Part shown: in pieces, positions 13,889-32,768 of the stretch
How positions within the stretch are numbered: the first letter of the stretch is position 1
How the letters are laid out: every line of letters begins with the position of its first letter
Virus record (IMG/VR): IMGVR_UViG_3300043411_000910
Span: 24,475 to 88,474 of that record
Strand: one strand, 5' to 3'
Source: a virus
Length of the DNA: 64,000 bases
Position numbers and translations under genes: made by a program
The notes under the pieces: generated by a model
Seen by the model: only the letters and a program-made list of their open reading frames with translations
Database searches by the model: none
Told to the model about the DNA's origin: nothing

Positions 13889-16105
13889 ATGCCTTGTGAT
13901 ATTAATGATATTGATGTAAAAATAACTTCGCCAACTGGACCTTCTATACCAGGATTTGGCTCTCCTTTCAGTATTAGTCTTCCACAAAACCTATTTCAAT
14001 TTCCAAATGGTTTTCCACAAAATCTTTTGGATATGTTTAATAAATTTAACATTAATTTACCAATAGGTCAATTAAAGTCACCACTTAATCCTAATTTCGG
14101 TAGAGATGCTTTTGATTCAATAATGAAATTATTGGATCAATTTTTTCCATTTCTAATGCTTTATAAATTCTTCTTACCAATACTAAATCTAATAGTTTGT
14201 ATAATAGAAGTTATTTGTAGTTTAAAGAATCCTTTCAAGTTAAGAAGAGCTATACTTAGACTATTTAGAAACTGTATTCCAGATTTTCTAAGTCTATTTC
14301 CTATATTTGCTCTTATAGTAATGATAATATCTTTGCTATTATTAATTCTACAATTGATAGAATATATATTAGAGCAATTAAAAAAACTAATAGATGCTAT
14401 TTTAAAAAACATAGCTACATTAGAGCATGCTATCAGTATAGCCGACGAAGAATCCATATTAGCTGCGTCTAAAAAATTCGCTGGATTTTTATGTTTTTTC
14501 CAAAACATATTTGTTATACTAGCTGCTTTCGCTGTACTCATACAAGCAATAAAAGAAATACTAAAGATAAAATTCAGAATCCCACCATGTGATAGTGATT
14601 CTGCTTCTAATATAACAGAAGAAGAGTTTTTAAATCAATGCTGCGGAACTGATGTTTGCCCAAGTGTAGTTAAAGAAAATATCAATAGATCAACTGGATC
14701 ATTTCAACATTATAATAAAGTTGTTCTTGTATCTTCAGTAGATCTAGGGTATGTTGTTGATCCAAATGCTGGAACTAAGTTAACCCAAACAATAAGAAAT
14801 TCATCATTTCAGCTTTATGATACAGCACAAGCTATAAGTGAAAGATTCTTGAATGTTATTGATGGATATGATATCCCAGATTTTATTGTGCCTAAGCCAG
14901 TATTCTTTCCAACAGATGCTAGCTATTCAGCTTCAACTAATCCAAAGCAAGCGGCTTATACTGTTGATTTAGATTTATTCTATAATCCAACTTCATATGA
15001 TAGGAACAATGTTTTAGTTGATGGCTCTCCGCGCAGAGTTAAGTTTAAAGATTGTATAGTTCTTGCGGCGCCCTCGACTTCGCTTTTGGATTTCCAGAAT
15101 GCTACGGCTTCGGTGGCTAATGGTGTAATATTGTTGGCTGGCGGATCTGGATATGAAGAAGATGGTACTACAAAATTGTTAGGATATTTTTCAGATGGAT
15201 ACACGCAAATTTCATCTCAAGCTACTCTAGAAACATTTTTAATGATGAAACCATTATATGATACGAGTCCAGAGCTAAAAGTAACTGATGGTTATTTATA
15301 CTCTGATGTTCAATATGAATTCAAACCAAACTTTGATTTGTTATTTAGCAAAGATCTTGTTACTGGAGGATGTTCACCAGATGTTGAATTTAATAGAGTG
15401 TTTATAAATTCAACAGTTGGTGGTGATGCTAATATAAGATTTGCAGCTTTATCAGCATTAGTTAATTCAGATGGGTCTGGAGAAAACAATGGTATAGATG
15501 GAACAAATAATCCTCCATTTAAGTTCCCAAATATAACAAATGCACAAAACTGTTTAAATGCATCAATAGAAGGGTTAAGGAGAAATTTCAATAGAGAACA
15601 AGTTGCAATATTTAATACATCAATAACTTCATGTTTAGATAACTTAAAGCAAGAATCATTAAATGCAATAGGTGAATTGGTTGGTATTGGATTTGATCAA
15701 TATAAGTCAACATTTACTATTGACCCAGTTTCTCAATTTACAACTAAAACAATAAAAGTAAAAGTTGATTTACTTGACTCAAACTCACAATCGATAACAA
15801 ATAATCTAACCCAAGAAGTTTCTGATTTAATTGCAAAAGAAATAACTGCATCTGTAACTTTTGGAAGTGTTAGTGACTTTGTTTATGATGGAAGTAGATA
15901 TTTCGTTGCGAGTATATCAGCTGATCAATCAGGATCAGGTACAATATCTGTAGAATATCAAAACAAACAATTTACTACTCTAACAATACCAGATGATTTA
16001 GATGTTAATCCTTCATCTACTGCATTAGTATTAGATTATACATTCATATATGTCGATGCTCTAAATGACAATGGACAAGTAAGAAGAGACATATCAGATC
16101 TATAA
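13889..16105 (+). CDS. Putative baseplate/virion protein with long hydrophobic helices and a C-terminal Ig-like region
   Basis: AAGGA RBS; three hydrophobic segments in residues ~85-225; many Cys; located in the baseplate cluster. Confidence 0.6.
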   Translation: MPCDINDIDVKITSPTGPSIPGFGSPFSISLPQNLFQFPNGFPQNLLDMFNKFNINLPIGQLKSPLNPNFGRDAFDSIMKLLDQFFPFLMLYKFFLPILNLIVCIIEVICSLKNPFKLRRAILRLFRNCIPDFLSLFPIFALIVMIISLLLLILQLIEYILEQLKKLIDAILKNIATLEHAISIADEESILAASKKFAGFLCFFQNIFVILAAFAVLIQAIKEILKIKFRIPPCDSDSASNITEEEFLNQCCGTDVCPSVVKENINRSTGSFQHYNKVVLVSSVDLGYVVDPNAGTKLTQTIRNSSFQLYDTAQAISERFLNVIDGYDIPDFIVPKPVFFPTDASYSASTNPKQAAYTVDLDLFYNPTSYDRNNVLVDGSPRRVKFKDCIVLAAPSTSLLDFQNATASVANGVILLAGGSGYEEDGTTKLLGYFSDGYTQISSQATLETFLMMKPLYDTSPELKVTDGYLYSDVQYEFKPNFDLLFSKDLVTGGCSPDVEFNRVFINSTVGGDANIRFAALSALVNSDGSGENNGIDGTNNPPFKFPNITNAQNCLNASIEGLRRNFNREQVAIFNTSITSCLDNLKQESLNAIGELVGIGFDQYKSTFTIDPVSQFTTKTIKVKVDLLDSNSQSITNNLTQEVSDLIAKEITASVTFGSVSDFVYDGSRYFVASISADQSGSGTISVEYQNKQFTTLTIPDDLDVNPSSTALVLDYTFIYVDALNDNGQVRRDISDL

Positions 16106-16114
16106 TAAGGTACT

Positions 16115-32500: not shown

Positions 32501-32768
32501 ATTTGATATAGCAATACAATCATTTTTCCCTAACCTAGATGGATACAGTGAAGATTTAGATCCAGGAATAATTGTTGATGGTAAAATGGGTGTTTACGTA
32601 GATCAAACAACTGGTATACTAACATTAAACTTTACTAATTTATCATATGACTCCTCTACATTTACTGGGTCAACTAGATTACAAATAAATGTATTTTTAA
32701 AGAAATCTGGGTTCAACAACAACACTTTGAGTGTTAATAAAACAATAGTTAATAACTTGTTTATATAA
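29541..32768 (+). CDS. Baseplate/fibre-attachment virion protein with dockerin-like EF-hand motifs
   Basis: Start refined to ATG 29541 after AGGA. WFNSQQIDEDNLNLEQ N-terminus; YGDLNGDCIVDESDLDLL and AGNIDQDFYIGPNDGYILESYL motifs. Confidence 0.6.
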   Translation: MDRKTITAEQNIWFNSQQIDEDNLNLEQEYNNTTKSSLVSNHIGSGVLIDGLTQLEYFSTEDVTSTIDGNVLTPKAQPSDINFGNQLEVSLDQSKVFGRRTVKCVVIGTDYNDSLIFEQFVFNRNESQFGSKHFKKIITVLINDLSGDSGKSFNLGGVLKVKEAKQSILSRDTLSVYQNYQPNIFWRDFYSLQTVDLNSLLELALPTYDISSLNIQTSEFTTRSIIKDDISTELGQKFKAKSNNIQKIRLLVSVENTEFGSETDLEWNGEMVLSVYPLQSTISCPSDIAPNLEIDFDPINSPIAQVSFSYATLLASGIQLSNTLQPVEFVLSNISVGTNKKIEKDKYYLLSLKRSGSADKCNITLGISENLLTDSRLVVSNGEIWVDVQDESLWFEIESDTAKLSSGKIYEDGFGIEIEKTKTDSTGTYDYSLSGLSFHGNSEFTGVVSSVTSSYSEVEDTRTGGTTYSVQKKVPDVNLLSSIELSDLESTKTLLKVGKILDKNRKLVPSNIINSNLHSWSFVKNQIIIPIVDDATDGYRYDGYVNTLVSSLINGELFLSKITPNNLSSSLSYRIGDAEVRTLIYGDLNGDCIVDESDLDLLNYYSDFNLNSSPKLDSVMVSDGISPATYENGYKFLTNPSKSASSLDFQVVLKSSGAMLAQALDGVLVNSSNTLSSFSSASIDFSAITNLTDCVLLVFDGTNSENYGAFDIKSINTATDTLTIGKKYIDESVMLSLLAGNIDQDFYIGPNDGYILESYLVRERLTSFDATPYPSVTSNYYDKVGKTFQAVILKIESIVDRDDEYSTDLFTRDSVVHPIKDIFTLDVNLQDLDLLNNPVQFTIEPRLVWKNYLVVSESDVKLVPNVLTSGSGSQEPCQELCEKPIVYPVKPTFDKGKNDFFVPDNLIINNGQILNNDGSYHKVDFEVGTIMLEIPDNFYGNEQSINIFTAFVCDNESTGKTIQGFPAMKFADCTFVKSDSISKGQVKFDIAIQSFFPNLDGYSEDLDPGIIVDGKMGVYVDQTTGILTLNFTNLSYDSSTFTGSTRLQINVFLKKSGFNNNTLSVNKTIVNNLFI

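Follow-up and report, generated by a model that had tools for sequence, protein, structure and literature searches.

Three-residue sequons are known for protein glycosylation: N-X-S/T, the bacterial D/E-X-N-X-S/T and, in the O-glycosylation of Bacteroidota, D-(S/T)-(A/I/L/V/M/T). The known bacterial systems of this kind are periplasmic, and they use lipid-linked donors and an oligosaccharyltransferase. Here we describe an Asp-Gly-Tyr (DGY) tripeptide that is strongly over-represented in the virion proteins of an uncultured huge phage; the DNA analysed (64,000 nucleotides, positions 24,475 to 88,474 of the IMG/VR record IMGVR_UViG_3300043411_000910; hereafter the window) contains four DGY-rich genes that are followed by a set of glycosyltransferase (GT) genes. 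DGY resembles the known sequons in being minimal and context-independent, in having an acidic residue just upstream of what would be the nucleophilic acceptor, and in being kept at many copies on exposed proteins while single sites come and go. It thus matches two hallmarks of a sequon: a short fixed motif is over-represented with turnover of its sites, and, as an indirect sign that the acceptor's nucleophile is needed, Phe rarely replaces the Tyr. Unlike the known sequons, DGY would have a tyrosine as its acceptor, and all three of its residues are fixed. Also unlike the periplasmic systems, the enzymes here are only of the soluble type and the virions are assembled in the cytoplasm.

Tyrosine O-glycosylation is known from the S-layers of Paenibacillus and Thermoanaerobacter, where a membrane O-oligosaccharyltransferase transfers lipid-linked glycans; as we propose here, the attachment point is the Tyr hydroxyl of a surface protein. 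To our knowledge those systems have no D-G-Y sequon, and no match to the membrane O-oligosaccharyltransferase family was found among the six proteins of our operon with Pfam and NCBIfam. Another precedent is GtfA of the serine-rich-repeat adhesins, a soluble enzyme of the GT-B/GT4 type that starts glycosylation in the cytoplasm on Ser/Thr in long repeats, the glycan then being extended by nearby GTs. The window likewise encodes a soluble GT4-type candidate with neighbouring GTs; unlike GtfA, its target would be Tyr, and its family matches are weak and generic.

Among phages we know of one well-studied case of virion marking, that of the mycobacteriophages, for which we are aware of no defined sequon. 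Their virions are glycosylated by phage-encoded GTs (Freeman et al. 2023, as cited in PMC12619734). The mycobacteriophages resemble our locus in that GT genes adjoin structural genes, modification is cytoplasmic and a coat on the virion surface is proposed; their glycans are attached to the C-terminal ends of the capsid and tail-tube proteins, whereas the DGY sites are internal to baseplate and fibre proteins. The open reading frames (ORFs) that we tentatively take to be capsid and tail tube (the latter by position only, with no Pfam match) contain no DGY. The mycobacteriophages are unrelated to the huge aquatic and wastewater myophages considered here. PMC12619734 describes the moraphages, a different lineage with smaller genomes and four core GTs, to which our clade could not be linked.

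DGY is enriched in virion proteins

A sequence-only reading of the window had placed 16 DGY tripeptides in four putative virion proteins, and every one of those starts proved exact. All four ORFs are on the plus strand. The first encodes a 738-amino-acid (aa) protein of the baseplate module with no Pfam or PHROG match (13889-16105; DGY at 14861, 15194 and 15287). The second encodes a 1343-aa Baseplate J, or gp6-like, wedge protein (18509-22540; DGY at 21116 and 21143; Pfam Baseplate_J 1.4e-18, PHROG baseplate wedge 6.8e-35). This is followed by a giant wedge-like protein of 2326 aa (22537-29517; DGY at 24913, 25906, 26713, 26842, 27583, 28999 and 29080), many relatives of which carry a precomputed Pfam match to Laminin_G_3, and by a distal protein of 1082 aa (29520-32768; DGY at 31149, 31164, 31794 and 32538, all in its C-terminal half).

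Composition alone predicts 1.09 DGY in the 5489 aa of these ORFs (Poisson p 7.2e-14 for the 16 observed), and DGY tops all tripeptides there by nine orders of magnitude, the runner-up having a p of 1.9e-5. A first-order Markov model raises the expectation to 4.64 (p 2.9e-5); this expectation is inflated because the DGY instances themselves feed the model. When these instances are removed from the virion module of the whole contig, DG occurs 66 times against 64 expected and GY 51 times against 46, and therefore the excess of DG is a consequence of DGY and not its cause. The enrichment thus survives a correction for DG bias. In the same module, DGF is found three times (3.1 expected) and NGY nine times (3.9 expected).

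The window makes up the right-hand 64 kb of one virus contig, 88,474 bp long. That contig holds 31 DGY, of which 30 fall in the virion module (15,588 aa; 3.2 expected; p 2e-19) and one in the 13,186 aa of its non-virion ORFs. Upstream of the window, there are five DGY in a 524-aa protein, five in a 1961-aa protein and a single one in the sheath and in each of three smaller proteins. The sequences around the 31 sites cannot be aligned with one another. Also within the virion module, between DGY-bearing structural genes, lies an endonuclease gene (contig 10730-12217, plus strand; phrog_4645, 1.4e-68).

A check of all other ORFs in the window yielded a single further DGY, as the sequence-only reading had reported: it lies at 45720-45728 (plus strand) within a 195-aa ORF (45528-46115) and is consistent with chance, although Pfam did not confirm the label of sigma factor that this ORF had been given. 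The same reading had found no DGY in the hub, spike and tape measure. The ORFs concerned are indeed free of it (the tape-measure-like ORFs at 3654-5879 and 6768-11645, and those at 11642-13582 and 16115-17701), but the names hub and spike found no confirmation in Pfam or PHROGs. Nor does DGY occur in the window's tube-initiator-like ORF or in its 646-aa, 528-aa and gp25-like proteins.

The enrichment extends across the clade and is specific to DGY

The window, with a G+C content of 28-33%, belongs to a stretch found in freshwater, wastewater and aquatic metagenomes of several studies. Full-length homologs of its Baseplate J and 2326-aa proteins number in the hundreds; they are 36-66% identical (59-66% for the closest) and lie on uncultured contigs of up to ~510 kb. 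A scan of viral contigs with the Baseplate J protein alone gave no match, and in a cultured-phage collection the sole match was Bacillus phage G, at 27% identity. We refer throughout to a set of 77 IMG/VR loci with 10-kb flanks that came from an alignment-based scan, and to two complete relatives: G003 (447,763 bp) and G004 (451,956 bp, with direct terminal repeats). The clade is a large one of huge phages and is abundant in freshwater and wastewater habitats. Two relatives were binned in metagenome-assembled genomes labelled Chitinophagales and Gammaproteobacteria, which is weak and unreliable as evidence of host.

DGY is enriched throughout the clade, and it is the same protein families that carry the excess. 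Across the 77 loci, the four families contain 1102 DGY against 74 expected, an observed/expected ratio (O/E) of 14.9; the ratio is 23 for the 738-aa family, 8 for Baseplate J, 13 for the 2326-aa wedge and 23 for the 1082-aa family. All other ORFs of these loci, pooled, give an O/E of 1.00, and the 528-aa baseplate family has one DGY where 4.7 are expected. Each of the 33 loci in which none of the four proteins is truncated and >6 kb of sequence lies downstream carries between 5 and 28 DGY. Unrelated baseplate sets show a mild excess: three against 1.06 expected in T4, and two against 0.96 in Bacillus phage G.

The effect is confined to the exact tripeptide. In the four families the O/E is 1.00 for DGF, 1.09 for NGY, 0.25 for EGY, 0.31 for DGH, 0.11 for DGW, 0.40 for DSY and 1.4 for YGD, and the positions that flank DGY carry no more than 0.23 bit each. 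The sites tend to lie close together: pairs separated by six residues or fewer number 103, as against 40 expected under random placement, with the tandem DGYDGY seen 17 times and DGYxDGY pairs also common.

The codons of DGY in the clade are used at background frequencies (GAT 0.83/0.83, GGA 0.40/0.43, TAT 0.78/0.79, DGY/background), and 31 of the 33 matches to the DNA pattern GAYGGNTAY on the plus strand fall in frame 0, the minus strand having a single match. From this codon usage and from the frame and strand specificity of the motif it follows that selection acts on the protein and not on the DNA, as had been proposed from the codon variety in the window.

How DGY sites evolve

Counting the distinct alignment columns in which DGY occurs strips out the inflation that shared ancestry would cause. 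By this count, DGY occupies 180 columns; 1538 tripeptides of similar expectation have a median of 27 and a maximum of 80. The wedge alignment alone has 97 DGY columns, with a family mean of 7.2 DGY against 0.5 expected, and four of the seven sites of the 2326-aa protein turn over across homologs. The 1082-aa family has 48 DGY columns, 24 of them singletons, and not one invariant site. Some gains of DGY are three-residue insertions. A few sites are near-invariant: residue 879 of Baseplate J (106 of 120 homologs; its remaining sites are sporadic), and wedge residues 1124 (119/120), 2155 (120/120; in a Laminin-G-type 'FIDGY' strand) and 2182 (101/120).

At 187 sporadic sites, the homologs that lack DGY have gaps (~30%) or D, N, S, T or G, and the position of the Tyr is not hydrophobic; the sporadic sites therefore look like indel-tolerant polar loops. 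Another key observation concerns what replaces the tyrosine. Phe accounts for 1.3% of replacements at 23 DGY-Tyr columns and for 49% at 311 ordinary Tyr columns drawn as an internal control from the same alignments (p 1.8e-13). By this comparison the tyrosines of DGY are unlike structural aromatics: either the hydroxyl would be required, or the position would become free once the motif is gone.

The DGY-bearing regions are residues 700-1750 and 2100-2200 of the wedge, 500-1000 of Baseplate J (where DGY is limited to an insertion), 500 to the end of the 1082-aa protein and ~300-700 of the 738-aa protein. The conserved N-terminal cores are free of DGY.

Predicted structural contexts

We obtained AlphaFold2 models, from alignments of 62-64 sequences, for the C-terminal half of the 1082-aa protein (predicted local distance difference test, pLDDT, 80) and for wedge residues 1050-1760 (pLDDT 84). 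In the former, the DGY at residues 544 and 549 are predicted in a loop preceding a helix, that at 759 at the N-terminus of a helix following a dockerin-like loop, and that at 1007 in a long loop of low confidence. In the latter, residue 1124 would lie in a loop directly after a strand, 1393 within a strand, 1436 in a two-residue hairpin turn and 1683 at a strand end. The eight modelled sites thus occupy five different secondary-structure contexts with no common conformation, and DGY is therefore not one structural element. The sequence-only reading had allowed that these tyrosines might be core positions of one repeated fold, which they are not, and had placed the motif on loops of baseplate proteins: the gap-rich polar columns, together with the loops and strand ends that predominate in the models, put it in variable, loop-like parts of peripheral baseplate proteins. 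Foldseek searches of the PDB with both models returned no informative fold.

The consensus of the 1082-aa family over its C-terminal half (31017-32765, plus strand) contains loops that resemble those of dockerins and EF-hands (GDVNGDGIIDxxDLxLL and RADIDGDFxIT), which suggests that this distal baseplate protein has calcium-binding modules. Within this consensus, DGY sits after the loop and not inside it.

The four genes are not intact in every relative. At L078:10001-19340, the wedge gene is split into pieces of 1248 aa and 1061 aa by a 734-aa ORF that has no match in the window and may be an inserted mobile gene. At L019, the homologs of GT4, wedge and Baseplate J are fragmented into multiple ORFs, and many ORFs of 80-95 aa lie downstream; sequencing errors, frameshifts or another genetic code could account for this.

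A glycosyltransferase operon follows the DGY-rich genes

Six tightly packed plus-strand genes begin 18 nucleotides past the 1082-aa ORF. They encode a GT4/GT-B-like enzyme of 372 aa (32787-33905), a GT2 enzyme of 231 aa (33902-34597), an Fpg/Nei-like H2TH protein (34560-35441; Pfam H2TH; NCBIfam fpg at 2.5e-16, far below the cut-off), a phage-specific protein of 317 aa (35434-36387; no match in PDB, NCBIfam and Atlas searches), a second GT2-like enzyme of 274 aa (36387-37211) and a nucleoside diphosphate (NDP)-sugar short-chain dehydrogenase/reductase (SDR; 37208-38155) that is nearest to dTDP-glucose 4,6-dehydratase, below the equivalog cut-off. The earlier description of DGY genes that end right before GT4, GT2, GT2 and sugar-SDR genes is thus accurate, with the Fpg/Nei-like and 317-aa genes intervening. 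Searches of PDB, NCBIfam and Atlas with the operon proteins gave generic GT2, GT4 and SDR matches only.

The operon follows the virion module in essentially all loci that have enough downstream flank; the sole locus without GT matches (L059) is on a record that is just 18% complete. Its synteny with the last baseplate gene holds down to ~30% protein identity. GT4 is single-copy and is present in all seven related records with enough sequence, which include three genomes that are 100% complete and two that are 96-97% complete. The Fpg/Nei-like gene had a BLAST match in 27 of the 77 loci and so is an optional member. The six operon families contain no DGY in 258 proteins, where ~11.6 would be expected, a difference of uncertain significance as the sequences are mutually related. 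Across loci, the number of DGY did not correlate with operon content.

We also noted DGY-rich genes at a second locus. In G003, 36 of 57 plus-strand matches to the DGY pattern lie within a 55-kb structural block. Far from this block, at 391-400 kb, is a second cluster that was located purely through the DGY DNA pattern. It includes a collagen-like/DUF5907 fibre protein of 1223 aa (L082:4564-8235, minus strand) with seven DGY against 0.22 expected, and a DUF5907 protein of 535 aa (L082:630-2237, plus strand) with three against 0.10. A GT2 gene (L082:2999-4117, minus strand) belongs to the same minus-strand unit as the 1223-aa fibre gene. Both of the PF00535 matches that G003 holds lie beside DGY-rich genes, as do two of the three GT2 genes in the relative G005, and it is suggestive that extra GT2 genes associate with DGY clusters.

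Replication genes, encoding a UvsW-like helicase and DnaB, come after the operon in the same orientation. An intein that contains a LAGLIDADG homing-endonuclease domain splits the UvsW-like helicase gene (38174-40891, plus strand; Pfam: Intein_splicing, LAGLIDADG_3, Hom_end, ResIII, Helicase_C).

Discussion

Our best reading is that DGY is a short, self-contained linear tag that is selected for copy number on exposed, peripheral domains of the virion and is read by some factor. Such a pattern is the imprint that evolution leaves on a short linear motif with a protein reader. We infer that such a reader exists, that it is GT4 and that modification occurs at the Tyr. If the operon reads the tag, then GT4 is the candidate for the initiating transferase. 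It would attach the first sugar to the hydroxyl of the Tyr in D-G-Y, on surface loops of virion proteins that are already folded or still folding; the glycan would be lengthened by the GT2 enzymes from a deoxy-sugar nucleotide supplied by the dehydratase-like SDR, and the outcome would be a glycan coat wherever the baseplate faces the environment and the surface of the host. We rank Tyr O-glycosylation first because GT4 is the sole enzyme that is universally linked to the DGY-rich genes and because phage virion glycosylation has a precedent. That the tag is an acceptor for phage cytoplasmic glycosylation, with GT4 starting on Tyr, the GT2s extending and the SDR providing the sugar, is a distinct possibility that we advance tentatively. 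The fuller proposal, in which DGY serves as sequon for a form of cytoplasmic tyrosine O-glycosylation that is new to science and GT4 starts a deoxy-sugar coat on dozens of tyrosines, is more doubtful.

Several observations weigh against glycosylation by this operon. G004 (locus L062) has no PF00535 GT2 at all, and DGY is still enriched ~9-fold there: the genome retains the GT4, Fpg-like, 317-aa and SDR genes, and its four proteins hold nine DGY. The GT2 genes must be dispensable for the enrichment, since it persists without them. The locus L034 has the full operon and only five DGY, and in G005, where several further DGY clusters are marked, one of the three GT2 genes is near none of them. GT presence is universal in the clade, and co-occurrence cannot discriminate because GT4 is found in every assessable relative. 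The best matches of GT4 are generic GT1/GT4 models that score under the Pfam cut-offs, and a GT with a D-G-Y sequon is not known to us. Some DGY are invariant, one of them in a Laminin-G-type strand, and these may be structural and inaccessible. The link between tag and operon that the sequence-only reading had drawn is therefore circumstantial: it gains from the synteny of GT4 and its presence in all seven records, and it loses from the universality of GT4 and from the enrichment that G004 shows without GT2.

The operon could equally serve the modification of DNA or polysaccharide, and the acceptor of GT4 could be a lipid. Its position at the boundary of the replication genes, with a DNA-glycosylase homologue of the Fpg/Nei type inside it and the UvsW-like helicase and DnaB genes next in the same orientation, fits DNA modification, and phage GTs commonly glycosylate DNA or change host surface glycans, as reviewed in PMC12619734. 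We nevertheless consider it rather doubtful that the operon is unrelated to the virion proteins, modifies phage DNA or host polysaccharide and owes its position to an accident of layout. Such an accident would have to survive in synteny with the last baseplate gene down to the low protein identities noted above; the Fpg-like gene is confined to a minority of loci by BLAST, the second DGY-rich fibre locus of G003 has a GT2 of its own, and the DGY phenomenon itself would be left unexplained.

Alternatively, DGY might be a true recognition tag with another reader, either an enzyme that adds a phosphate, sulfate, nucleotide or cross-link to the Tyr, or a decoration protein, fibre, chaperone or assembly factor that is encoded elsewhere in the genome of roughly 450 kb and docks on it. 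Every sign of a reader at the level of sequence applies equally to this possibility; the GT link is one of synteny, the complete relative that lacks GT2 stays enriched, and the excess of close DGY pairs suits multivalent binding. What makes it unlikely in our view is that neither the 88-kb contig nor the flanks of the 77 loci revealed a candidate kinase, sulfotransferase or peptide-binding module, and that GT4 was the one enzyme whose synteny with the DGY-rich genes proved universal; moreover, 5-28 docking sites per protein set, without positional conservation, would be unusual for assembly contacts.

It is also conceivable that DGY has no reader and is a self-sufficient micro-motif, confined to outward-facing positions: a loop stabilised by Asp and Tyr, or a patch that binds a host glycan, a metal or a mineral. 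That Asp, Gly and the hydroxyl of Tyr should all be needed would fit a side-chain contact or a sugar-binding pair and would account for the exclusion of Phe, and restriction to outer virion domains fits contact with a ligand. The mild 2-3x excess in unrelated baseplates and the invariant sites, including the one in the lectin-like Laminin-G strand, point the same way. A stabiliser, however, should enrich loops elsewhere, yet the other ORFs of these phages are at expectation, the GT-operon proteins have no DGY and the 528-aa baseplate family is depleted of it. The models share no conformation and the flanks carry no information; three residues without fixed geometry make a poor binding site, whereas they are normal for a motif that is recognised by an enzyme or a peptide-binding partner. 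We thus hold this possibility to be distinctly unlikely.

Known turn motifs, namely the type I' Asp-Gly hairpin, the tyrosine corner and the D-x-D-G of EF-hands and dockerins, do fit single sites: the hairpin fits wedge residue 1436, and residue 759 of the 1082-aa protein follows a dockerin-type loop. As general explanations we reject them. A generic structural turn or tyrosine corner is contradicted by the lack of a common conformation and of any flank signal, by the failure to tolerate Phe or Asn, by the unenriched state of other proteins in the same phages and by the weakness of the excess in unrelated baseplates. A calcium loop of the EF-hand/dockerin kind is contradicted by the 31 contexts, none of which has an acidic or amide residue at both -4 and -2.

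Finally, the enrichment might be an artefact that arises from composition, from DG bias, from the descent of a single repeated module or from a signal in the DNA. This is highly improbable and, like chance or one repeated fold, is excluded by the tests above. In its favour, the four ORFs taken by themselves are less significant after the Markov correction, and nearly all homologs have inherited a few of the sites. Against it, DG and GY match expectation once DGY is taken out, DGF and NGY are at ~1.0, the 180 DGY columns are independent, the flanks fail to align, and the codons are used at background frequency in a frame-specific motif.

We return, then, to DGY as a linear tag on the outer virion. 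It looks undescribed: a literature search for DGY or the Asp-Gly-Tyr motif returned nothing relevant, and no GT with a D-G-Y sequon was found. The post-translational marking of phage virions is barely explored, and here a Tyr-centred tag of three residues is present at 5-28 copies per set of four baseplate proteins across an abundant clade. In the complete relative G003, the DGY pattern alone singled out two fibre genes away from the structural module. If the tag is read by the phage's own transferases, it would represent a new chemistry of protein glycosylation and a portable tag for engineering; it would also provide a simple sequence rule that predicts outer virion proteins among unknown ORFs, and it would show by what means huge phages shield or adjust the surfaces with which they contact their hosts.

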